Under the pieces are notes generated by a model. The model saw only the letters and a program-made list of their open reading frames with translations. It searched no databases and was not told where the DNA came from. A stretch of 20,000 bases of DNA, from IMG/VR virus record IMGVR_UViG_3300028552_000008; one strand, written 5' to 3'. Both the position numbers and the translations under genes were made by a program. Position 1 is the first letter of the stretch, and each line of letters opens with the position of its first letter. Below, piece by piece: positions 3,224 to 20,000 of the stretch. Source of the stretch: an uncultured virus (IMG/VR IMGVR_UViG_3300028552_000008) (Duplodnaviria; Heunggongvirae; Uroviricota; Caudoviricetes).

Positions 3224-3631
3224 ATGACAATAACAAAAATAGCTAATAGATGGTATGACGAAAACAATAATAGCTGGTTATCAGAAGAAGCAGCTACTCA
3301 ATACTCACTTACCCTAACTAATTGTAGTAGGTGTAGTGATTGTAGTAATTGTATTGATTGTAGAGATTGTAGTAATTGGTGTAGTAATTGTAATAATTGT
3401 AGAGATTGTAGTTATTGTATATATTGTAGTGATTGTAGTTATTGTATATATTGTATTGATTGTAATATTTGTAGTGATTGTAGTAGTTGTATTAATTGTA
3501 GTAATTGTAGTGATTGTAGAGATTGTAGTAGTTGTATTGATTGTAGTGATTGTACTAATAATAAGAAGTATGAACCAGTAACTAGACCATTTATAGACTG
3601 TACTAACAGACTATTAGAACCAGATTTATGA
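3224..3631 (+). CDS. Cys-x-x repeat protein, paralog 1 (26 Cxx units), C-terminal tag NRLLEPDL
   Basis: Conserved N-terminal RWYDENNNSW...TLTNC head, 9-bp TGT-based repeat units. Confidence 0.85.
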   Translation: MTITKIANRWYDENNNSWLSEEAATQYSLTLTNCSRCSDCSNCIDCRDCSNWCSNCNNCRDCSYCIYCSDCSYCIYCIDCNICSDCSSCINCSNCSDCRDCSSCIDCSDCTNNKKYEPVTRPFIDCTNRLLEPDL

Positions 3632-4169: not shown

Positions 4170-4601
4170 ATGACAATAACAAAAAGAGCTGATAGATGGT
4201 ATGACGAAAACGGTAATAGTTGGATAACTGAAGAACTAGCTACTACTGACTCTCCTACCCTAACTAATTGTTATAATTGTAGAGGTTGTAGTAATTGTAG
4301 AGATTGTAGTTATTGTATATATTGTAGTGATTGTAGTAATTGTATTAGTTGTATTAGTTGTAGTGATTGTAGTAATTGTAGTAATTGTTATAGTTGTATT
4401 GATTGTAGTAATTGTAGTGATTGTTATAGTTGTAGAGATTGTAGTAGTTGTATTGATTGTAGTAGTTGTAGTGGTTGTAGAGATTGTAGTAATTGTAATA
4501 ATTGTATTTATTGTAGTGATTGTACTAATAATAAGAAGTATGAACCAGTAACTAGACCATTTATAGACTGTACTAACAGACTATTAGAACCAGATTTATG
4601 A
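4170..4601 (+). CDS. Cys-x-x repeat protein, paralog 2 (29 Cxx units), tag NRLLEPDL
   Basis: Same head motif and repeat as paralog 1, identical tail. Confidence 0.85.
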   Translation: MTITKRADRWYDENGNSWITEELATTDSPTLTNCYNCRGCSNCRDCSYCIYCSDCSNCISCISCSDCSNCSNCYSCIDCSNCSDCYSCRDCSSCIDCSSCSGCRDCSNCNNCIYCSDCTNNKKYEPVTRPFIDCTNRLLEPDL

Positions 4602-6155: not shown

Positions 6156-6333
6156 GGTGGCATTTTATAGAGGTACTCATAGGTTTGAAGGTAGAATAAT
6201 AAATAGCGCAGCATTTCATGATCATTGGTGTGTTCAATTATTGAACTCTAAATTTATGTCAGTACATAAACAATGTTGTAATAAAATTAGAAAAGAAAAT
6301 CCTTTAGATAGGAAACTAGAGCTTGATTTATGA
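6115..6333 (+). CDS. SH3/KOW-like small protein, tag DRKLELDL
   Basis: YNIGDEV...FEGRII. Confidence 0.75.
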   Translation: MSETLTHIYNIGDEVAFYRGTHRFEGRIINSAAFHDHWCVQLLNSKFMSVHKQCCNKIRKENPLDRKLELDL

Positions 6334-6887
6334 CAATAACTAAAAGAGATAATAGATGGTTTGACGAAAACAATAATAGCTGGGATAGTGAAGAAGAAGC
6401 TACTCTATACTCACCTACCCTAACCGATTGTACTAGTTGTTTTAATTGTTATAGTTGTATTGATTGTAGTAGTTGTATTGATTGTAGAGATTGTAGTAGT
6501 TGTATTGATTGTAGTAATTGTAGAGATTGTACTAGTTGTGATAGTTGTAGTGGTTGCATTGATTGTAGTGGTTGTGTTGATTGTAGAGATTGTAGTGGTT
6601 GTAGTGGTTGTATTTATTGTATATATTGTAGTGATTGTAGTGAGTGTTATGGATGTAGAGATTGTAGTAATTGTAGTAATTGTTATAGTTGTATTGATTG
6701 TAGTAATTGTAGTGATTGTAGAGATTGTAATAATTGTAGAGATTGTAGTAGTTGTATTGATTGTAGAGATTGTAGTTATTGTAGTAGTTGTATTGGTTGT
6801 AATGACTGGACTAATAACATGAAATATGAACCGGTAATTAGACCATTTATAGACTGTACTAACAGACTATTAGAACCAGACTTATGA
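6330..6887 (+). CDS. Cys-x-x repeat protein, paralog 3 (42 Cxx units), tag NRLLEPDL
   Basis: Head RWFDENNNSW...SPTLTDC; longest repeat tract of the family. Confidence 0.85.
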   Translation: MTITKRDNRWFDENNNSWDSEEEATLYSPTLTDCTSCFNCYSCIDCSSCIDCRDCSSCIDCSNCRDCTSCDSCSGCIDCSGCVDCRDCSGCSGCIYCIYCSDCSECYGCRDCSNCSNCYSCIDCSNCSDCRDCNNCRDCSSCIDCRDCSYCSSCIGCNDWTNNMKYEPVIRPFIDCTNRLLEPDL

Positions 6888-8468: not shown

Positions 8469-8792
8469 ATGACAATAACAAAAAGAGCTGATAGATGGTA
8501 TGACGAACGAGGTAATAGTTGGTTATCAGAAGAATTAGCTACTTTATACTCACCTACCTTAACTAATTGTAGTTATTGTGATGATTGTAGTAATTGTAGA
8601 AATTGTAGTAGTTGTAGTAATTGTAGTAGTTGTAGAGATTGTATTAGTTGTTATGATTGTAACGATTGTAAATATGTCTGTTGCCTGACAGACAGAACAA
8701 GATTTACTGCTCAATTCGAACCTGCTACAGAAGATACTATAATAAGACCTGAACTTGACATTAATAATAGAAGACTTGAAATTGAACTATGA
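8469..8792 (+). CDS. Cys-x-x repeat protein, paralog 4 (12 Cxx units), tag NRRLEIEL
   Basis: Head RWYDERGNSW...SPTLTNC. Confidence 0.85.
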   Translation: MTITKRADRWYDERGNSWLSEELATLYSPTLTNCSYCDDCSNCRNCSSCSNCSSCRDCISCYDCNDCKYVCCLTDRTRFTAQFEPATEDTIIRPELDINNRRLEIEL

Positions 8793-9914: not shown

Positions 9915-10112
9915 ATGGCTCAATTAATAATAAAGAATATTACCATGAATCAAGCCAAAGTATTAGCTAGTTACTACCAAAGACAAGGGGAACAACACGC
10001 TGAAGTATGGTTTGAAGACAGAAACGAAGAAACACCAATAGTAGATGTATCAAAATGTCCTTGGTTAATAGTAGATGAAAAAGAAGAAACTGTAACTATT
10101 ATTTGTAAATGA
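9915..10112 (+). CDS. Hypothetical protein
   Basis: The ORF-track start at 9891 lies inside the tRNA; ATG at 9915 used instead. Confidence 0.7.
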   Translation: MAQLIIKNITMNQAKVLASYYQRQGEQHAEVWFEDRNEETPIVDVSKCPWLIVDEKEETVTIICK

Positions 10113-10441
10113 AACTAACAAAACGAGAAAATGATAGATTCTATGATGAAAACAATAATAGTTGGATAACAGAACAACTAGCTACTGTATATTCACCTAC
10201 GCTGATTAATTGTAGATATTGTAGTGATTGTAGTAATTGTAGTAATTGTAGTAGTTGTATTAGTTGTTATATATGTGTTAATTGTAGTAATTGTAGTGAG
10301 TGTTATAGATGTAGAGATTGTATTAGTTTGTATAGACATTACAACGAAGAAAAATTAAAACCTCAGAAGTATGACACTGAAGATACTATAATAAGACCTG
10401 AACTTGACATTAATAATAGAAGACTTGAAATTGAACTATGA
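10109..10441 (+). CDS. Cys-x-x repeat protein, paralog 5 (13 Cxx units), tag NRRLEIEL
   Basis: Head RFYDENNNSW...SPTLINC. Confidence 0.85.
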   Translation: MKLTKRENDRFYDENNNSWITEQLATVYSPTLINCRYCSDCSNCSNCSSCISCYICVNCSNCSECYRCRDCISLYRHYNEEKLKPQKYDTEDTIIRPELDINNRRLEIEL

Positions 10442-11522: not shown

Positions 11523-11990
11523 ATGAAACTAACAAAAAGATATAATAGATGGTATGACGAAAATTATAATAGTTGGGATACTGAAGAATCAGCTACTCAA
11601 TACTCACCTACCCTAACTAATTGTAGTAGGTGTAGTGATTGTAGATATTGTAGTCTTTGTAATTATTGTAGTAATTGTAGTAATTGTAATGATTGTATTA
11701 CTTGTATTAATTGTAGTGATTGTACTCGTTGTATTAATTGTAGAGGTTGTATTTGTTGTAATCAGTGTATAAGTTGTAGTGATTGTAGTAATTGTAGTAG
11801 GTGTACTAGTTGTAATCGTTGTAGCGGTTGTAGCGGTTGTAGTGATTGTACTCGTTGTATTGATTGTAGTTGGTGTAGTTTACTTATAGATAGAATAAGA
11901 TTTTTCCCACAAACTGGCCCTGACAACTCGGAACTAATAACTAGAAAAGAAATAGCATTAACAGATCGAAATCTGGAACCATTTTTATGA
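11523..11990 (+). CDS. Cys-x-x repeat protein, paralog 6 (29 Cxx units), tag DRNLEPFL
   Basis: Head RWYDENYNSW...SPTLTNC. Confidence 0.85.
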   Translation: MKLTKRYNRWYDENYNSWDTEESATQYSPTLTNCSRCSDCRYCSLCNYCSNCSNCNDCITCINCSDCTRCINCRGCICCNQCISCSDCSNCSRCTSCNRCSGCSGCSDCTRCIDCSWCSLLIDRIRFFPQTGPDNSELITRKEIALTDRNLEPFL

Positions 11991-12316
11991 AAATAAAACC
12001 AGGCTTTGAAGAAGAATTTGAAGTAGCCAAGACTTTAATACATAAACATACTGATGCTATAATCAAATATGTTAATGATTGGAGTTTGGCGATGGAGAAC
12101 TGTATAGCTGAAGGTCAATCATTAAAAGATATAGCCATGCCTTTAAGTGAACAGATTTCTATTATAGATAGCAGGCCTGACCATGTTAAAGTTATGGCCG
12201 CTATACTATTAATGAACTGTTGGATTTATGGGGATGAGTTGACTGAGATATTTCATCCTAGCCACCTTAACTTTGAGCTGGAACTGCTAAAACAATTAAA
12301 GTTTGCTAATTACTAG
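11987..12316 (+). CDS. Hypothetical protein
   Basis: 109-aa ORF with ATGA overlap. Confidence 0.7.
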   Translation: MKIKPGFEEEFEVAKTLIHKHTDAIIKYVNDWSLAMENCIAEGQSLKDIAMPLSEQISIIDSRPDHVKVMAAILLMNCWIYGDELTEIFHPSHLNFELELLKQLKFANY

Positions 12317-12319
12317 AAT

Positions 12320-12395
12320 GAGGGTGTAGTGAAATAGCATATAATAACTCTTTCCTAAAGAGTAGTTACAGGTTGAAATCCTGTCATCCTTACCA
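12320..12395 (+). tRNA. tRNA-Arg (anticodon CCT), weak D arm
   Basis: Acceptor GAGGGTG/CATCCTT, anticodon arm ACTCT-TTCCTAA-AGAGT, T arm ACAGG-TTGAAAT-CCTGT, ACCA end. Confidence 0.82.
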
Positions 12396-12404
12396 AATTA
12401 AACC

Positions 12405-12497
12405 ATGAAACTAGACGATCAAACAAAAGACAACATTATTGAAATCTTATGGGCAGTATTCTTTGTATTATTGCTCTTAAAGATATTCATATTTTAA
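12405..12497 (+). CDS. 30-aa putative membrane peptide (not in ORF track)
   Basis: MKLDDQTKDNIIEILWAVFFVLLLLKIFIF. Confidence 0.55.
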   Translation: MKLDDQTKDNIIEILWAVFFVLLLLKIFIF

Positions 12498-12501
12498 CTT
12501 T

Positions 12502-12645
12502 ATGAAACTGCAAAAAATACTAGAAGCCTGTTTATGGATAACTCTTATTATCTTCATAAGTGCTATAGCGGCTCTTACACATCACTTTTTACTAACTATT
12601 CTGTTTTCGATTTTTTGTTTACTCTTTATTGGTTATAAAACTTGA
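12502..12645 (+). CDS. 47-aa putative membrane protein (not in ORF track)
   Basis: MKLQKILEACLWITLIIFISAIAALTHHFLLTILFSIFCLLFIGYKT. Confidence 0.6.
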   Translation: MKLQKILEACLWITLIIFISAIAALTHHFLLTILFSIFCLLFIGYKT

Positions 12646-12709
12646 AAATATCATTATCATTGTTGTATATAATAACACTATTCACAAAAACCTTGAATTT
12701 ACAAACTAA

Positions 12710-12874
12710 ATGAAACCAGACAAAAAGAAGAAAGACCTTTTAATGCTACTATGCGTTATTGGTGGGATGAGCTTGTTTGCAGGCATGACACATACCCCAA
12801 TACTATTAGTAGCAATTCCGGTTTACCTTTATCTCTATCTAGACGACCTTGATAAAGATATCAATGAAGATTAA
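12710..12874 (+). CDS. 54-aa putative membrane protein (not in ORF track)
   Basis: MKPDKKKKDLLMLLCVIGGMSLFAGMTHTPILLVAIPVYLYLYLDDLDKDINED. Confidence 0.6.
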   Translation: MKPDKKKKDLLMLLCVIGGMSLFAGMTHTPILLVAIPVYLYLYLDDLDKDINED

Positions 12875-12880
12875 CACAAA

Positions 12881-13465
12881 ATGAACAATAAACTAACTGT
12901 ATTTTTAGACTTGGATGGCACTATTGTAGACTGGTTGGATAAGATGAGAAAAGAATGTAAATTACCAATCAGTGCATTTACTCAATTTTATGAGAATCCA
13001 GACTCTCTAACTGAGGAAGCAATTACTGAATTATTTGGAGGAGAAAATAAATTTCGCAAACTAATGTATAACAGAAGTGCTAAATTCTGGTATACTCTTG
13101 ATAGCTTTTGGTGGATGGAATATCTGATAGTCCAGTTAAAAAATAACTTTAATGAAGTTGCCTTCTTTACTAGCCCTGGAGATAACCCTGAAGCTGGGAA
13201 GGGTAAGATTTTATGGCAACAAAAGCATTATCCAGAGATTCCTCTTATTATGGGGAAACACAAGCATTTATGTGCTGGTCCTAATAAAGTATTAATAGAT
13301 GATAACTATAGGAAGATTGGTAGGTTTATTGAATATGGAGGTTATGGCATTCTTTGGCCTAATCAGTTTCATGTAGCTAAGTTTAATGCCGGTAGAACGT
13401 ACTCACTTATTTCTGATATAGTAGCTGAAATTCTAGCTTACCAGAAATACCATACCTTGATTTAA
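12881..13465 (+). CDS. HAD-superfamily 5'(3')-deoxyribonucleotidase-like protein
   Basis: Motif I FLDLDGTIVDW, motif II FFTSP, motif III K, motif IV LIDDN. Confidence 0.85.
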   Translation: MNNKLTVFLDLDGTIVDWLDKMRKECKLPISAFTQFYENPDSLTEEAITELFGGENKFRKLMYNRSAKFWYTLDSFWWMEYLIVQLKNNFNEVAFFTSPGDNPEAGKGKILWQQKHYPEIPLIMGKHKHLCAGPNKVLIDDNYRKIGRFIEYGGYGILWPNQFHVAKFNAGRTYSLISDIVAEILAYQKYHTLI

Positions 13466-13466
13466 T

Positions 13467-14138
13467 ATGTCTGACCTCATTTTTAGTCGTGAAGTGCTTA
13501 AGTTGAATAAAAATCATTTACCTATAGGATTCTTCACGCCTAAAGATGTATTTACAGCTTTGGCTAATTATATGGTTGATAGAAGACAGAACTATATACT
13601 GGATGTTAAAGGTAATAAAATGCGCAAGATGCTGGCTTATGATATTACTTATGAACAGATAGATGATGACCTATACGACTTCTCCAAACTTCTTAATATG
13701 CGGGTAGTTGACTGGGATGAATGGATAACCTTGCCAGTAAGGAGTTATGATCTATTCGTACATACCCCTAACCTTGTAGTAAGAGTGCCTAGAGTAGTTG
13801 TAAGTCTGGCTTGTGAAGAAATGCCTAAAGTTCGATATAATACTAGCTTAAAATCTGTTTATAACCTGTATGAAGGTATTTGTCAGATAAGTAAGAAAAG
13901 ATTAACAATGAAGGAGGCTAGTCGTGATCATGTAATACCTGTCTCTAAAGGTGGCGAAAATAAGCTAAATAACATCATCTTGGTCGATAGATGTATTAAT
14001 AGCAGAATGGGTAATAAGTATAAACATGAGTTAGGATTGCCAGAGATTAAACCTAAAACCCCTAAAACCATGCCGGTAAAAGATACATTAAGAAATATTA
14101 AAGGTGTTCCGGAATGGGAATACTGGTTAAAAAGATGA
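13467..14138 (+). CDS. HNH endonuclease (McrA-like)
   Basis: N-terminal VLKLN..H.P, VPRVV, and SRDHVIPVSKGGENKLNNI...INSRMGN. Confidence 0.85.
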   Translation: MSDLIFSREVLKLNKNHLPIGFFTPKDVFTALANYMVDRRQNYILDVKGNKMRKMLAYDITYEQIDDDLYDFSKLLNMRVVDWDEWITLPVRSYDLFVHTPNLVVRVPRVVVSLACEEMPKVRYNTSLKSVYNLYEGICQISKKRLTMKEASRDHVIPVSKGGENKLNNIILVDRCINSRMGNKYKHELGLPEIKPKTPKTMPVKDTLRNIKGVPEWEYWLKR

Positions 14139-14512
14139 GTACTATATTAAAGAGTGAATATCTTTATAATGATAATGATAATCATGATAAAGTATATAAT
14201 GTGACGCTAAAAGAAGTGGAAGGACAAATCACAACAGGTACAGTTATTGATTTTGTAGTTACTGCCGAATATGGTAGGAGAGGTTCGGTTTTAAAGACCA
14301 TAACTAAATATGATGGCATTAGCTATGGTAAAGCTAAAGAAATTTATACATCTTTAATAGCAGAAAAAATAGCCAAAGGTTACAATAAAGGACCTAAAAG
14401 AAAGAAGGTCAAATCCGAACCTGAATTGAAACCTAAACTGAAACCAAAGAAGTTGGAAACCCAGGAGCTAAACGATGTACCTTTTAGAAGATTAGACTTT
14501 GGTGACTTATGA
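14135..14512 (+). CDS. WGR-domain protein with tag variant FRRLDFGDL
   Basis: DKVY...AEYGRRGS...EKIAKGY; ATG at 14135 overlaps the HNH stop. Confidence 0.75.
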   Translation: MSTILKSEYLYNDNDNHDKVYNVTLKEVEGQITTGTVIDFVVTAEYGRRGSVLKTITKYDGISYGKAKEIYTSLIAEKIAKGYNKGPKRKKVKSEPELKPKLKPKKLETQELNDVPFRRLDFGDL

Positions 14513-15015
14513 ATAACAACCTTACTCTTTTTAGTTATGTTGATAATACTACTTTAACTTTGGCTCAAGGTAGGTTAATTAGTAGTTTTGCCAGACATTT
14601 TGGGTATCCTAATAAAGTTATGAGAGGATTGATAGATATGGATAGGGCGGTACAGGAAAGACTTATTCACTTTGATTTGCCAAATTACGTTATTAGAGAT
14701 ACCTATTATGTAGTTAATGTTAAATTATCCATTAATAAGCTGTTTTCTGAGAAGTCTTTCTATAAAAGCGATCTGTATTGCCAGTATACCTTAAAAGCCT
14801 CAGACCCGGCTAAAACAGATTCGGTATTGGTTGTTTCCAGCCCAGATCTTTATATAGTTGTTCCTTATGATATTATAGTTAATGGTAAAACAGCTTTGGA
14901 TCTTTATGGAGGGGGTATATTTTTGAATTATGAAGGCTGTACTGGTCAGGTTCTTATACCTATTAAGCACTATTTAGATGGTAAGTTCCCAGACCCCTCC
15001 CCTCCCTCAGAATAA
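14509..15015 (+). CDS. Hypothetical protein
   Basis: 168-aa ORF with ATGA overlap. Confidence 0.7.
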   Translation: MNNNLTLFSYVDNTTLTLAQGRLISSFARHFGYPNKVMRGLIDMDRAVQERLIHFDLPNYVIRDTYYVVNVKLSINKLFSEKSFYKSDLYCQYTLKASDPAKTDSVLVVSSPDLYIVVPYDIIVNGKTALDLYGGGIFLNYEGCTGQVLIPIKHYLDGKFPDPSPPSE

Positions 15016-15176
15016 TGGTTTTTTTAGGTATAATAATCTGAATAGGAGTTTTTTGACTTGCAGATTCATTTTTAGTACCTAACAAGTACTGGTTTATCTT
15101 CAAATCATTAAACATGCCTGATAGACAAATTAGACAAACCAAACAAATTGGCCCAAAAGAGAAACGCTTCATATGA
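15015..15176 (+). pseudogene. Small membrane-protein frame interrupted by two in-frame TGA codons
   Basis: MVFLGIII*IGVF*LADSFLVPNKYWFIFKSLNMPDRQIRQTKQIGPKEKRFI*; TAATG overlap at the start and ATGA overlap at the end. Confidence 0.4.
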
Positions 15177-15820
15177 AATCTATATTTAAAACAAAAATCG
15201 AACCAACCCTCAAAATTGTCTCTTTCAGAGAGTTTGCTACTGAGGTTGTTCCAGCTATTATAAGGGAACAGCCTTCTTTCAAGTTCACTGATGGTTGGTG
15301 TTTAGGTGAAATTGAAAGAATCACATTGGATCGAGGAATTGATACGTTAATGGGTGGTGGAGATAATAACTATCATTATACTGAACTTGATCCTGATACC
15401 AAAGTGCATATTACTACTACAGGCTTTCGTGTATCTCAAGATAAGTTACAATTCATCCTTGTTCTTCCTACAAAAGCTCTTGGAAACTTTAGAACCCTCG
15501 CTGAATTGGCAGCATATCAGAAGGAAAACAGATTTCACATGTTGATTGATTGTAAGTTTAATGAGTCTGGAGATATGGCTTGGATTTTTGAAAAGACTAA
15601 GAAAGGCATTATTACTCATGTGTTAACTGCTTTTGAAGACTTTGACACTGATCCTACTGTAAATCTTAACAAACAACCAGTTCATTTTTTACGTTCTGGC
15701 AGTATCCAAATCGACTTGCAACTGAGTCAGCTAGATCAATATACATCCGGAGAAGGAATCTTCACATTTATGTCACCTCCTTCTTGGAATGCCTGGGAAG
15801 GAATCTTTAAACGGCTCTGA
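15173..15820 (+). CDS. Hypothetical protein
   Basis: 215-aa ORF. Confidence 0.75.
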   Translation: MKSIFKTKIEPTLKIVSFREFATEVVPAIIREQPSFKFTDGWCLGEIERITLDRGIDTLMGGGDNNYHYTELDPDTKVHITTTGFRVSQDKLQFILVLPTKALGNFRTLAELAAYQKENRFHMLIDCKFNESGDMAWIFEKTKKGIITHVLTAFEDFDTDPTVNLNKQPVHFLRSGSIQIDLQLSQLDQYTSGEGIFTFMSPPSWNAWEGIFKRL

Positions 15821-15975
15821 GATTAAGTTTTCTGAAAAGTCAAATTTGGTGGGGAAACATACTAATACTGAATAAAGTGTGAGCTTTGAGTAAGCTCTTC
15901 AGTGTTGGTGCTAGGTAGGTGATTGGTTGTTTGTTAGGAATTTTCCAATCACCTACCTTTAATATTTTTAGCTTT

Positions 15976-16155
15976 GAACTGGTGCTGTATTAAATCTGGC
16001 TTACTAGACTGAATAGCAATATGGCATGAGCTGTTTATGTTGTCCACTCTTAACCAACTGTCCCGAATTGTCAATACAAGGATAGTTCTGTTAAGACGAT
16101 TGAGTCAGTAAGAAGGGTTCCTTGGCCGGGAATTCTTCTGTTGCAGCATCAGTTC
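15976..16155 (+). ncRNA. Candidate structured ncRNA element A (180 nt, multibranch)
   Basis: 14-bp closing stem GAACTGGTGCTGTA/TGCAGCATCAGTTC with nested stems; G-U pairs indicate the + strand. Confidence 0.55.
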
Positions 16156-16163
16156 TTTAATTT

Positions 16164-16339
16164 AGGCAGCATTGCAATAATTTTTAACTAGAAAAGCTGG
16201 TAGAGCGCGGATTCTTGACTAGCTGTATGTAGAGTTGCAGGATTAAACCGTGATCGCTGCAAACCAATCAGTATTAGTTAAATGGACTAATTCTTGCTAG
16301 TTAGGCATTAAGATACCTCCTATTATTGCAGTGCTGTCT
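16164..16339 (+). ncRNA. Candidate structured ncRNA element B (176 nt, cloverleaf-like junction on a long stem)
   Basis: 18-bp closing stem AGGCAGCATTGCAATAAT/ATTATTGCAGTGCTGTCT; inner TAACTAG/CTAGTTA closes three hairpins. Confidence 0.55.
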
Positions 16340-16448
16340 TCTTTTAGTCTTCTTTTTTAAGCGGTGTGTAACAGGAACCTCTAGTTTTAAAGCAAAAAAC
16401 GGATTGATGAGGTAGTTGCATATTGGTGCTTCTTAAAGGAGAAGGCTT

Positions 16449-16480
16449 GCACCTAGTCTAGTACTAGGTGCTTCAATTTT
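16449..16480 (+). terminator. Possible intrinsic terminator or processing hairpin
   Basis: GCACCTAGT-CTAGT-ACTAGGTGC followed by TTCAATTTT. Confidence 0.45.
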
Positions 16481-16512
16481 AGTTAACATTAACAACCACA
16501 ATTACTTAAACT

Positions 16513-17955
16513 ATGCAAAAAATAAAAGCTATAATCTTAGTTGGATTGAACTATGGTGATGAGGGGAAGGGATCTGTAACTGATAGTCTAGTCCAACACT
16601 TCAAGTCAGATTTGGTGGTTCGCTATAATGGTGGATTCCAAGCTGCCCACAATGTCCACAATGAGACAGGACATCACACCTTCCATCAGTTCGGTTCTGG
16701 TACCTTGAGTGGGGCTAGGACTTATATAGGTAGTGAAGTTATTATCTCGCCTAAATTGATGATGGATGAGGCTGACAGCTTGTATAAGCTTGGAGTAGAT
16801 AAACCATTATCTCTCATACATATATCGCCTAACTGCAGGATTACTACGCTATACCATATAGCGTTGAATCAAATGAGAGAATTAGCTCGCACAAATGTAC
16901 ACGGCAGTACTGGAAATGGTATTGGAGTTACTGCAGAATTAGCTAGACAACGTAGTAGTTGGGTCTTGAGAGTAAGAGATTTAAGTAAACATAAAAGTGA
17001 TGTCCTCCAGATTCTTAATTCAATCTATGAATACTGTTTTTTGAAATGCGTTGAATTGCAACATGATTATAAATTGGAAAGTCAAGCAGTAGAGGACTTG
17101 ATGCTTACCTTTAACATACCTCAATTAAACAACCAACTATACGATATTTACCTTGAATGGTTAAATCAGGTCAACGTTTGCCATAGTCTTGATATTATCA
17201 AAGACAGTAACCTTCCTATTTTTGAAGGAGCACAAGGAGTATTGTTGGATAAACTTCATGGTTTTCATCCTTACACTACCTGGTCTGATACTACTCCTAC
17301 CTATGCTATGGATATGTTGTATATATTAGGTATCCCTATACAGAATACTTATAAGTTAGGCATTACCAGGACTTTTATGACTAGGCATGGTAATGGTCCT
17401 CTTCTGACTGAAACAAATGATTTGAATGCTTTAATAGCACATGATCATAATAAGACAGGTAAATTCCAAGGATGTCTTAGGGTAGGTAATTTAGACTTGA
17501 TGGCTTTGCAATATGCTATTCAAAAGTGCGGTGGTCTTAATGGTCTGGCAGTTACTCACTGTGATTATTTAAGTAATCGTGAAGTACGTACAGTTTGCTG
17601 GACTTATGCTGGTATAGATTTGCTTAGTTACAATTGCAAGGAAGAAGCTGGTTTGGAAGCCTGGAATCTTACTAAGGCCTACTCTAAGAATAAGGCCCTG
17701 CTATATGAAGTTCCAGATTTATTAGCTGAAATTCAAAAGGTTACGAAGTTACCTATAGTAATAACTTCACACAGTAAATTCACAAAAGACAAATTATATA
17801 TGGGACTAGAACAAAATGAACTCCCGGCAACGTATACTCCAGTTAAAACTGCAGTACCGATTGTTGAGGAAGTGAGCAATCCTGAAGAAATTCAGATTAA
17901 ACAAGCTGATACGTTTCAACAAACTGAAGCAGCAAAACCAACAACAACTAATTAA
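16513..17955 (+). CDS. purA: Adenylosuccinate synthetase (divergent PurA type, not PurZ)
   Basis: GDEGKG, RYNGGFQAAH, GSTGNGIG, FEGAQGVLLD, HPYTTWS, TRHGNGP. Confidence 0.9.
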   Translation: MQKIKAIILVGLNYGDEGKGSVTDSLVQHFKSDLVVRYNGGFQAAHNVHNETGHHTFHQFGSGTLSGARTYIGSEVIISPKLMMDEADSLYKLGVDKPLSLIHISPNCRITTLYHIALNQMRELARTNVHGSTGNGIGVTAELARQRSSWVLRVRDLSKHKSDVLQILNSIYEYCFLKCVELQHDYKLESQAVEDLMLTFNIPQLNNQLYDIYLEWLNQVNVCHSLDIIKDSNLPIFEGAQGVLLDKLHGFHPYTTWSDTTPTYAMDMLYILGIPIQNTYKLGITRTFMTRHGNGPLLTETNDLNALIAHDHNKTGKFQGCLRVGNLDLMALQYAIQKCGGLNGLAVTHCDYLSNREVRTVCWTYAGIDLLSYNCKEEAGLEAWNLTKAYSKNKALLYEVPDLLAEIQKVTKLPIVITSHSKFTKDKLYMGLEQNELPATYTPVKTAVPIVEEVSNPEEIQIKQADTFQQTEAAKPTTTN

Positions 17956-17957
17956 TT

Positions 17958-18905
17958 ATGGGTTTTTCACATTATGATGCAACTATAACTAGAAGTTACA
18001 TCTCTTCTAGAACTGCTGCTGGCGTATCTGTAATGGATCATGCCGTAGCAGTGAATGAAGGAAGAGCTGAAAATAAGGCTCATCCAACGCTTGATATGAG
18101 AATTCCTAACCGGGCTGGTAGGATAATTAGAGAGAGTCTTGATAGTGAGGCTCATCCTAATAGTTTGCCAATCGCTGTATGTCTTGATACTACTGGTTCG
18201 ATGAGCACAATACCTTCCAAAGTAGTTTTGCAGTTGCCTAAGCTGATGGATTTGCTAATTAAAGCAAAGTATGTCTCTGATCCTCATATTCTGTTCGGGG
18301 CTGTAAATGATGCAACTACTTATCCTGCAGCTGCTCTTGAAGTCGGCCAGTTTGAGTCCGGTAATCAGATGGATGGTTGTCTTACCAATATTTTAGTCTC
18401 CCAAGGTGGCGGAGGTGGTACTCAATGCGAAAGCTATGAGTTAATCATGTTTGTGCTGGCAAGATTGACTGAATTGGATAGCCTGAAAAAACGTAATAAG
18501 AAAGGCTACTGTTTTATTTTGGGTGATGAAAAACCCTATTCTTTTGTTAGTAAGCTAGAGGTTAAGGAGTGGATTGGAATTGACATTGAAGCTGACATTC
18601 CTACTACCACAATTTTGGAGGAATTGAAGCAGAAGTTCAATGTTTACTGGTTGTTCCCTAGTAATGCTCAGAATAGCCGAGATAGAGGAGTTAAGGCTCA
18701 TCTTCAAGGATTGTTTGGGCAGAATCTTATCATGCTGAAAGATGAAGAGACTATCTGTACTACCATAGCAGCTACTATTGCTATTAATGAAGGTAGAGAT
18801 CCCCGTACTGTAACCGAAGAATTGAAGGATGGATTTAAGGACAATCCTGATGATATCCAAGTCATCATTGACTCCATACCGCCTCGTAGATTTGATGACT
18901 TGTAA
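17958..18905 (+). CDS. von Willebrand factor A (vWA) domain protein with tag variant PRRFDDL
   Basis: MIDAS-like LDTTGSM, GQFES, GGGG...ESYEL, FILGDE. Confidence 0.85.
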   Translation: MGFSHYDATITRSYISSRTAAGVSVMDHAVAVNEGRAENKAHPTLDMRIPNRAGRIIRESLDSEAHPNSLPIAVCLDTTGSMSTIPSKVVLQLPKLMDLLIKAKYVSDPHILFGAVNDATTYPAAALEVGQFESGNQMDGCLTNILVSQGGGGGTQCESYELIMFVLARLTELDSLKKRNKKGYCFILGDEKPYSFVSKLEVKEWIGIDIEADIPTTTILEELKQKFNVYWLFPSNAQNSRDRGVKAHLQGLFGQNLIMLKDEETICTTIAATIAINEGRDPRTVTEELKDGFKDNPDDIQVIIDSIPPRRFDDL

Positions 18906-18955
18906 TTGAGCAATTCGTTGCTCTGGTGGAGGCTGGCTTTAACTAGTTAGCCCTG

Positions 18956-19000
18956 GTGCAGTATATTCTATGTTTCTGAGTGTACTGCACTTTTAATTTT
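18956..19000 (+). terminator. Hairpin plus T tract (terminator-like), preceded by two further hairpins
   Basis: GTGCAGTATATTC-9nt-GAGTGTACTGCAC followed by TTTTAATTTT. Confidence 0.5.
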
Positions 19001-19003
19001 GAT

Positions 19004-19075
19004 GGTGCTATAGCTCAGTGGTAGAGCAAGCTCTTTATAAGGGTTAGGTCGATGGTTCGAATCCATCTAGCACTA
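19004..19075 (+). tRNA. tRNA-Ile (anticodon TAT), CCA not encoded
   Basis: Acceptor GGTGCTA/TAGCACT, D arm GCTC-AGTGGTA-GAGC, anticodon arm AGCTC-TTTATAA-GGGTT, T arm GATGG-TTCGAAT-CCATC. Confidence 0.92.
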
Positions 19076-19121
19076 CTACTTTCCATACACTCCCGTATAG
19101 TAACTTTTACACAAAATAACA

Positions 19122-19439
19122 ATGTCCTTCCCTATAATAATTAATGGTGGTGTAATGGGTATTTCTACCCAAACATGTATAGTTTGTGGCTTTCTAGCTG
19201 ATGGTTTCAATGTTTTAGGTTCATTTTGTAGTGCTCATAAACACATTCTAGTAAGAGAATTCTTACTAGAAGAGGATCTGGTTGTGCTAGATATTATTCC
19301 AGATCAAGAACTTAGAGAACATATTAAGAATTATATCAGGAAAACCAGCATAGATGATAGTAATGCTGAATGGTGGTGTAAAGCATCAAATAAAGGTAAA
19401 AGAGAATTTCGAAAACAACATCCAGAACTATTTAAATAA
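19122..19439 (+). CDS. Hypothetical protein (possible CxxC...CxxH zinc site)
   Basis: 105-aa ORF, CIVC...CSAH. Confidence 0.65.
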   Translation: MSFPIIINGGVMGISTQTCIVCGFLADGFNVLGSFCSAHKHILVREFLLEEDLVVLDIIPDQELREHIKNYIRKTSIDDSNAEWWCKASNKGKREFRKQHPELFK

Positions 19440-19568
19440 CATATAATTCTATTCTTACCAAGCGAGAAATGTGATAATAGAGTAAGAGTACTTGCAATAG
19501 TACTCATTTTATTCATAGTAGTAGTTTTGACATTAGTAGTATTAGCTCCTCTATCTTCTATTAAAACA

Positions 19569-20000
19569 ATGAAAATAACATCAGATACCACGATAACAGC
19601 TAGTGAAGGTGAACTAGAAGTACGAATGGGTAAAGGTATGACTTCAGTTTATGTCAAGAAGCAAGAAAAACTTGTTTTGTATACTAATGAAGTATCAACT
19701 CTTATTCAACTTCTACAAACTGCTAACACTAATACTCCTGAAGCGAACAGGGATAGAGCATTATTACTACAAGAACTTGTAGCTACTGATCCTATTATAA
19801 GTAAGTTTCCTACTCATCATGTAGTAGATGCTTACCAACAAATGCTTAGAATTGCTCCAGAATTAAGTAGTGAGAAGGAAATTACTAGAGCATTCCTTAG
19901 ACAAGCTGGTGCGAGTCAGGCCATTTCACCATTTGAGGCAGCTGACTTAATTAAGGCGAATACAGGTTTATTTAAGCAACATCAACTACAAAGAGGACTA
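19569..20000 (+). CDS. Partial hypothetical protein (runs off the window)
   Basis: Open frame MKITSDTTITASEGELEVRMG...DAYQQMLRIAPELSSEKEITRAFLRQ...; the frame is open from 19440, so the true start is uncertain. Confidence 0.65.
   Translation, partial: MKITSDTTITASEGELEVRMGKGMTSVYVKKQEKLVLYTNEVSTLIQLLQTANTNTPEANRDRALLLQELVATDPIISKFPTHHVVDAYQQMLRIAPELSSEKEITRAFLRQAGASQAISPFEAADLIKANTGLFKQHQLQRGL

Follow-up and report, generated by a model that had tools for sequence, protein, structure and literature searches.

Our results suggest that the gene-free gap upstream of the purA-like gene of an uncultured phage is a real, RNA-selected and uncatalogued structured region, which is best read as two or three small RNAs (units A, B and perhaps C in Table 1) accompanied by ordinary hairpins. 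The window, that is, the whole 20,000-nucleotide stretch of DNA analysed here, forms the last 20 kb of a virus record of 137,456 bases; the phage measures about 218 kb in total (the contig of locus L091), and record G017 holds the part of it that is missing from the window's own record. The sequencing runs containing the stretch are labelled as peat metagenome. The phage carries multi-subunit RNA polymerase genes. In the record, ARAGORN found 16 tRNAs and Rfam one more (17 in all), and outside the gap the RNA inventory of the phage is completed by a tmRNA and a YrlA-like RNA. Shine-Dalgarno sequences are avoided by the phage genes (7 of 181, against a background of 6.7%), which suggests a host that may itself be poor in them. 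Moraphages were considered as the lineage and ruled out, since moraphages, in the accessible part of PMC12619734, have no RNA polymerase. We found no mention of this locus in the literature; neither adenylosuccinate nor tmRNA occurs in the accessible part of PMC7824862, and the six supplement files of PMC10690425 (10,006 viral candidates) that were compared gave no match to it.

Table 1. Features of the gap and its flanks, in window positions; z-scores compare predicted folding with shuffled sequences.
Feature	Position	Strand	Description
orf168, lineage marker gene	14509..15015	+	24 matches among protein representatives; 3' end bears the promoter
Predicted phage promoter	14994..15034	+	C-rich box, about 20 nt, then GGTATAAT; putative activity
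orf215, orphan protein of variable cassette	15173..15820	+	Absent from L094
Bulged hairpin H0	15860..15910	+	13 bp, 8-nt bulge, 6 bp; z -4.3 (200 shuffles)
Hairpin T1	15913..15969 (stem 15913-15958)	+	Perfect 14 bp, U-rich tail; z -6.4 (200 shuffles)
Unit A, 180 nt	15976..16155	+	14-bp closing stem, three-way junction, long nested arm
Unit B, 176 nt	16164..16339	+	18-bp closing stem, loosely determined interior; z -3.8 (200 shuffles)
Unit C, 102 nt	16346..16447	+	Extended hairpin of 16 bp + 11 bp + 5 bp; z -4.3/-1.3 (200 shuffles)
Hairpin T2	16449..16479 (stem 16449-16471)	+	9 bp, weak U tail; z -4.4; 41 nt before the purA-like start
purA-like adenylosuccinate synthetase gene	16513..17955	+	PF00709, E 1.6e-61; neighbour, regulation by the RNAs conjectural
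VWA-type partner gene of the purA-like gene	17958..18905	+	phrog_2971; source annotations call its relatives VWFA domain protein

The gap (15821-16512, 692 nt) is, as the initial annotation had stated, the longest gene-free stretch of the window, the next ones measuring 564 and 561 nt, and its longest stop-free frame has fewer than 60 codons on either strand. Folding against shuffled sequences, a check proposed in that annotation, gave -226.5 kcal/mol for the + strand (z -10.1, with 0 of 20 shuffles as good) and -165.4 kcal/mol for the - strand (z -2.7). All the closing stems that had been named by eye were predicted, with a mean pair probability of 0.91-0.99, and the linkers between them, described as T-rich, are U-rich in the RNA, with most of their bases unpaired (p 0.76-1.0). 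The linkers look like the AU-rich leaders that precede the 17 tRNAs of the phage, a weak likeness in a genome of 35% GC. Moreover, G-U was the main imperfect pair on the + strand, as had been noted: it makes up 30 of the 199 predicted pairs, and a strand-neutral scan, with small numbers, gave 3 G-U and 0 A-C. Imperfect pairs of this kind on one strand point to selection at the RNA level.

In support of this, units A and B folded together gave z -6.2 on the + strand and -2.2 on the - strand, the same bias as that of the phage tmRNA (-4.5/+0.2), and only 1 of 14 random 364-nt windows fell below z -3 on the + strand. With DNA energy parameters the strand bias vanished (z -3.5/-2.7). The bias shared with the tmRNA and its loss with DNA energies are thus an RNA signature. 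An element acting as DNA (an origin, a cruciform or a packaging signal) could be proposed from the several near-perfect inverted repeats and the large gene-free gap, but its folding as DNA is weak and symmetric, and the gap has neither iterons nor a skew switch, so that we regard it as extremely improbable. Note that the best window of the gap ranked only 25th in a 160-nt scan of the record, and the gap is therefore distinct by the length and density of its structure, not by local stability. Similarly, the 137-kb record contains 42 long-range stems (at least 13 pairs) on both strands, so one such stem means little by itself, although the 18-bp stem of unit B is the longest of them; three long closing stems standing back to back in 470 nt, the longest included, are unusual. 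No internal repeats were detected among units A, B and C (p 0.32-0.56). From these folding models we are highly confident that the + strand would be structured, with the domain boundaries of Table 1, unpaired linkers and no protein frame.

Unit A gave z -5.7 on the + strand and -1.9 on the - strand (200 shuffles), and its interior alone -2.9/-0.3. Its nested arm carries a CGAA bulge (16064-67), and a 12-bp hairpin presents a self-complementary loop (16122-28). The closing stem of unit A was confirmed; the register CTTACT.GACT proposed for its junction was not, the preferred pairing being 15996-16003 with 16101-16108 (p 0.68). In unit B the 18-bp closing stem likewise stood, whereas the four-way junction drawn inside it is only one of several near-equal folds: it competes with a 16214-16223:16296-16305 pairing (p about 0.5), and the interior alone is no more stable than shuffles (z -0.9). 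Two further ideas about unit B were discarded. Kissing loops between its hairpins could be drawn by eye equally well in the chance match L222 and were not counted, and an anti-Shine-Dalgarno role of its ACCTCCT was rejected on the grounds that this sequence occurs in one copy, is only partly unpaired, is absent from L094 and stands in a phage whose genes avoid Shine-Dalgarno sequences. The stem at 16362-16425 is real, but it is the inner part of the hairpin 16346-16447 and not a separate element; unit C as a whole is a candidate small RNA or RNase III-type processing stem.

The initial annotation had taken all the stems as one ncRNA cluster. This did not hold for T1 and T2, which are common simple hairpins of the phage. 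T1, likely a leaky terminator or a processing hairpin, is one of 28 simple hairpins (at least 11 Watson-Crick pairs) in the record, many of which lie just before genes, and its tail, TATTTTTAGCT, is identical to that of the terminal hairpin of L094. The TCACCTACC motif in T1 was dropped, since the genes of a Cys-rich repeat family carry it as coding sequence. T2, likely a leaky terminator or a 5' protecting stem, is among 2 terminator-like hairpins found where 1.3 are expected; forbidding it cost 13 kcal/mol and brought up no competing helix.

The gap lies behind a predicted promoter. The arrangement of a C-rich box, about 20 nt and GGTATAAT is probably the promoter of the phage's own RNA polymerase. 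The motif occurs 6 times in the record, with 5 of these sites at gene-free gaps, and the site listed in Table 1 is the sole one upstream of the RNAs; further sites were found in genome C1 (26439, 26476, 59207 and 59302), in the relative G001 and, at the same position, in L094. Homologues of orf168 occur in 6 of 19 records, with GGTATAAT directly after each of them; no family could be assigned to this gene, and a transcription factor is a guess. A search for relatives of orf215 returned orf215 itself alone among 53 candidates, with no match in PHROG or NCBIfam and a best Pfam E of 0.096, and a SUFU-like lead scored 0.81, below the Atlas bar of 0.9. The sequence that follows the promoter differs between related loci: here it is orf215 and the RNAs, in L091 two extra ORFs come first, and in L094 there is only a gene-free stretch of 536 nt. 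This varying content indicates that the RNAs sit in a swappable slot, in which they are probably co-transcribed with orf215. The L091 insertion (L091:2465-3213) adds 758 bases, which include a long hairpin and two ORFs of only 68 and 129 aa, to the promoter-to-orf215 interval of a phage that is otherwise identical.

Such variability (758 extra bases with two ORFs in L091, no orf215 in L094) would also suit selfish or neutral inserts, MITE-like or intervening-sequence-like, that have settled in a slot that tolerates them, downstream of a strong promoter, and whose closing stems are inverted repeats without a role for the phage. Long terminal inverted repeats around a loose interior, as in unit B, resemble such elements, and no homologues were found elsewhere. 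Nevertheless, the sequence is present in a single copy in the record, with no paralogue in G016 or G017, it is not flanked by a target-site duplication, and its imperfect pairs are G-U on one strand, as described above (few in number); we consider this origin very unlikely.

Instead, the explanation that we favour, with about an even chance of being correct as a whole, is that the gap forms the non-coding tail of a phage operon of variable content, and that cuts in the U-rich linkers between its three stem-closed domains release small stable RNAs serving as decoys or scaffolds. Transcription from the predicted promoter would read through orf215 and the leaky T1, host single-strand endonucleases would cut the AU-rich linkers as they do the precursors of phage tRNAs, and closing stems of 14-18 bp would protect the RNA ends. 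Small stable RNAs of about 180 (A), 176 (B) and perhaps 100 nt (C) would be released, while T1 and T2 would act as ordinary expression signals outside them. The initial annotation had offered either one large ncRNA or several processed RNAs of about 180 nt, and the latter is favoured; that the units exist as separate processed RNAs is, in our judgement, slightly on the probable side.

Public RNA libraries were searched for the locus. Five runs, from 5 studies, contain part of 15000-17000, and 4 of them (X1 to X4) were compared over 12000-20000, as contigs. One X3 contig covers 15989-16146, and two X4 contigs cover 15991-16150 and 16172-16315, the last ending at 16172 in adapter. The X3 and X4 contigs inside unit A, although coming from two studies, have both ends 2-4 nt apart, with no loose end among the pieces listed, and of the 31 pieces listed, out of 52, not one spans the A-B linker. 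Note that these RNA contigs are about one read long, with a depth of 3.8-8.5, that ends, strand and level cannot be read from them, and that DNA carry-over is possible; contigs lying inside A or B are thus a weak hint of separate RNAs. In X1 and X2, large parts of the coding DNA on either side are covered and contigs span the T1 hairpin at 15956, with no depth over 16005-16538. Absence of contig cover proves nothing; the RNAs are clearly not demonstrably abundant.

The stems could also be signals acting in cis (stacked RNase III-type stems, leaky terminators or stabilisers) that determine the amount of purA-like/VWA message and release no free RNA. The position of the gap between orf215 and the purA-like gene, with no promoter between them, fits this, as do the hairpin and U tract that both the studied phage and L094 have 25-41 nt before the purA start, the simple long hairpins (28 in the record) found before so many genes, and the 27 nearly continuous pairs of unit C. 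Against it, simple processing signals need 30-60 nt and not two branched domains of 180 nt, and most other loci carry the VWA gene upstream of purA and have no such leader. Moreover, no Rfam aptamer or riboswitch family matched, and no anti-terminator competes with T2, so that no riboswitch-like switch or attenuator of purA is evident; a fold that some uncatalogued ligand would stabilise is conceivable. This reading appears to us rather unlikely. RNase III processing stems and intervening sequences likewise have long closing stems that tolerate G-U and lie between the genes of a single transcript; A and B differ from these in their branched interiors of 140-150 nt, and cleavage is here a prediction. 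The purA-like product is nearer to purA models than to PurZ, and it falls under all NCBIfam cut-offs. The purA-like and VWA-type genes adjoin each other in most of 160 phage and metagenome loci (L013-L170), usually with VWA first; this order is reversed in the studied phage (16513-18905), in L094 and in L097. About 30 strain differences cluster at 16650-17097, in the first half of the purA-like gene, with nearly identical surroundings, and their distribution suggests that this may be a recombined tract.

Alternatively, the whole region could be one ornate RNA of about 620 nt with long-range and intermolecular contacts. ROOL and GOLLD, as described in the accessible part of bioRxiv 10.1101/2024.12.08.627333, are large structured phage RNAs of unknown function that lie near tRNA islands and carry palindromic kissing loops, and the size of our region, its location in a phage and a tRNA 2.5 kb away would fit them. 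In addition, 16262-16278 is complementary to 15861-71 (11 nt) and to 15920-28 (9 nt), but by our estimate about 1 complement of 9 nt and about 0.1 of 11 nt are expected by chance. Unit A carries a palindromic loop (GGCC), and co-folding a pair of A molecules brings a gain of 12 kcal/mol, a figure without a shuffled control. Yet the region as a whole is not closed by any helix, each high-probability helix stays inside a single domain, with no such pair crossing a linker, and a terminator-like hairpin lies within. The ROOL model (RF03087) gave nothing in 2 records at E<=1, here without a positive control, and was absent from the permissive scan; the GOLLD model (RF02032) gave nothing in 2 records at E<=1, with its control positive only below the cut-off. 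With no model match, and with modular domains in place of an overall closing helix, we think a single ornate RNA unlikely, and the processed small RNAs remain the preferred reading.

As the annotation had surmised, no known family could be assigned: Rfam gave nothing in the gap at gathering thresholds, and a permissive scan returned only chance matches (E 0.89 or worse). The models for 6S RNA (RF00013; 0 of 2 records, controls positive in 5 of 14) and type A RNase P RNA (RF00010; 0 of 2, controls 11 of 14) were negative, and units A and B are branched, unlike the unbranched rod of 6S RNA. A reverse transcriptase (PF00078), which a retron or another RT-linked ncRNA would have nearby, was found in 0 of 3 records (controls 3 of 14). 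Viral sgRNA/Racr elements are about 90 nt long and have homology to a host tracrRNA or CRISPR repeat, according to the accessible part of bioRxiv 10.64898/2026.06.01.729453; among the Rfam families, no tracrRNA or CRISPR repeat matched the gap. Neither ARAGORN nor Rfam detected a cloverleaf, a tRNA-like domain with a CCA end or a tag frame in the gap, and its similarity to the phage tmRNA was unconvincing (best p 0.012 of 8 tests).

The suggestion that the RNAs mimic tRNAs or Y RNAs found no support: the gap has neither a T arm nor a complete D arm, the GNCGAA motif is missing, and the phage has no Ro60 gene. The pattern scan for T and D arms found neither in the gap nor in that of L094, and both in the phage's YrlA-like RNA; the GNCGAAN0-1G motif is absent near the 5' end, the only CGAA (16064-67) following CC 88 nt into unit A; and Ro60 (PF05731), whose gene would be expected within 4 kb in the same orientation, was found in 0 of 3 records that jointly make up about the whole phage (controls 2 of 14). 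The Y RNA features used here, for YrlA (RF02553) and Yrl1/Yrl2 of phage phiLo, come from the accessible parts of PMC4201824 and PMC12135203. Units A and B do share with Y RNAs that their ends pair as a long stem around a branched interior, and B has a D-loop-like GGTAGAGC and A the unpaired CGAA bulge, but the YrlA-like RNA of the phage is a separate gene, unlike A, B and C in sequence (p 0.23-0.97). A likeness of the first hairpin of B to the vertebrate Y-RNA helix was considered and not retained, the published GGUCCGA strand being absent.

The YrlA-like RNA itself lies at L238:17099-17226 (- strand; G017:C1:124451-124578), 2.6 kb past the window end and 6.1 kb from the gap. It is a full-length but sub-threshold match (32 bits for a cut-off of 69, E 1.2e-4), and the YrlA model was positive only there; a T arm, an acceptor hairpin and a D arm follow in YrlA order inside a long closing stem, without a clear GNCGAA motif and in a phage that has no Ro60 gene. 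The tmRNA lies 6.3 kb past the window end (L238:13177-13588, - strand, 78 bits); its tag frame, at about 29 codons, is unusually long. Beside it stand a tRNA-Cys and two tRNA-like elements, one of them partial (13010-13067) and the other bearing a very long extra arm (about 13750-13880); the latter went unreported by Rfam.

Next, we looked for homologues of the gap. In a near-identical strain the gap differs by one change, C15956T in T1, which turns a G-C into a G-U and keeps the pair, a one-sided change and hence no covariation; orf215 has zero changes in the same comparison, so low variation is not specific to the gap. No homologue was found by blastn of the gap against 50,697 phage records (the L094 gap gave likewise none) or against 19 records (15 RNA-polymerase relatives and 2 of the same phage), and neither G016 nor G017 has a paralogue. 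Covariance models built from the single sequences of A and B recovered only themselves among 68 records and missed the L094 region, and the neighbouring genes used as bait in viral contigs brought up only the same phage or unrelated matches. This region is missing from G001, a fragment that represents the closest long relative (78% polymerase identity).

Among the 160 VWA loci there was one new syntenic locus, L094, the sole diverged one found, whose neighbouring genes are 27-54% identical. Between the same promoter and purA it has a gene-free gap, which ends in a 17-bp hairpin. Two motifs of unit B, GTAGAGCG (16200-07) and GTTAGGCATTAAG (16300-12), are colinear in the L094 gap; for the pair, p is 0.0055 (2000 shuffles) in a post hoc test, and a match as good as the 13-mer GTTAGGCATTAAG, also a post hoc choice, was reached by 13 of 1000 shuffles. 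Alignment tests against L094 gave p 0.03-0.73, no counterpart of the closing stems was present in L094, and without its terminator the L094 gap folds with a z of only -1.2. Scans for the motif pair gave 1 non-self match in viral contigs, 3 in genome contigs, 2 more and L222, all in reading frames (4 other one-mismatch matches were seen by their flanks alone); that similar pairs arise by chance in coding DNA counts against homology with L094. On these sequence comparisons, the chance that the core of unit B may be homologous with L094 is somewhat better than even. For A and C no homologue appeared in anything searched. L094:2715-3210 is itself a gene-free, transcript-like unit of about 490 nt, running from the promoter to the 17-bp terminator without an Rfam match, and is a candidate ncRNA.

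What the processed RNAs would do is a more tentative matter. They encode nothing, the search for antisense targets in the phage genome did no better than shuffles, no purA switch is evident and the slot behind the promoter is one of variable accessory genes; binding of a host protein would therefore be their most likely job. By a speculative last step, the released RNAs would titrate a host RNA-decay, RNA-repair or anti-phage protein. No candidate partner protein (neither Ro60 nor a reverse transcriptase) was found in the phage. A role as decoys for host RNA-binding proteins is, in our view, a rather doubtful proposal.

In working terms the closest known RNAs are T4 RNAC and RNAD, as small stable phage RNAs. 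These are processed from a polycistronic precursor. They come from a region rich in tRNA genes and their role is unknown (accessible parts of PMC3014915 and PMC9697503); the RNAs proposed here differ in their length of 176-180 nt and in lying behind a protein gene, 2.5 kb from the nearest tRNA, the sequence comparison having been made via Rfam and the phage collection only. The role of structured phage RNAs such as T4 RNAC/RNAD, ROOL and GOLLD is an old question, and RNA-based counter-defence has been demonstrated only recently. This locus, which remains a candidate, gives two compact, uncatalogued RNAs open to synthesis and direct probing, in a lineage that brings its own RNA polymerase along with a tmRNA and a YrlA-like RNA, but no Ro60. 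It is conceivable, if quite improbable, that A and B are the first members of a new class of phage decoy RNAs clamped by stems, and that with the tmRNA, the tRNAs and the YrlA-like RNA they form an RNA-only toolkit capturing host RNA quality-control or anti-phage proteins, swapped in the promoter slot like anti-defence genes.

Finally, two other parts of the genome deserve mention. A second promoter-proximal, gene-free structured region lies at 59345-59700 of genome C1 (L007:19345-19700; z -4.8 on the + strand and -1.2 on the - strand), without an Rfam match, and the matching gap of G001 holds a different structured sequence. The Cys-rich repeat gene family is represented in the window at 3224-3631, 4170-4601, 6330-6887, 8469-8792, 10109-10441 and 11523-11990. 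About 15 copies were counted in the record, with others in G017, and the family is the most variable DNA between strains; a short C-terminal motif is common to many of these genes and to neighbouring small ORFs.
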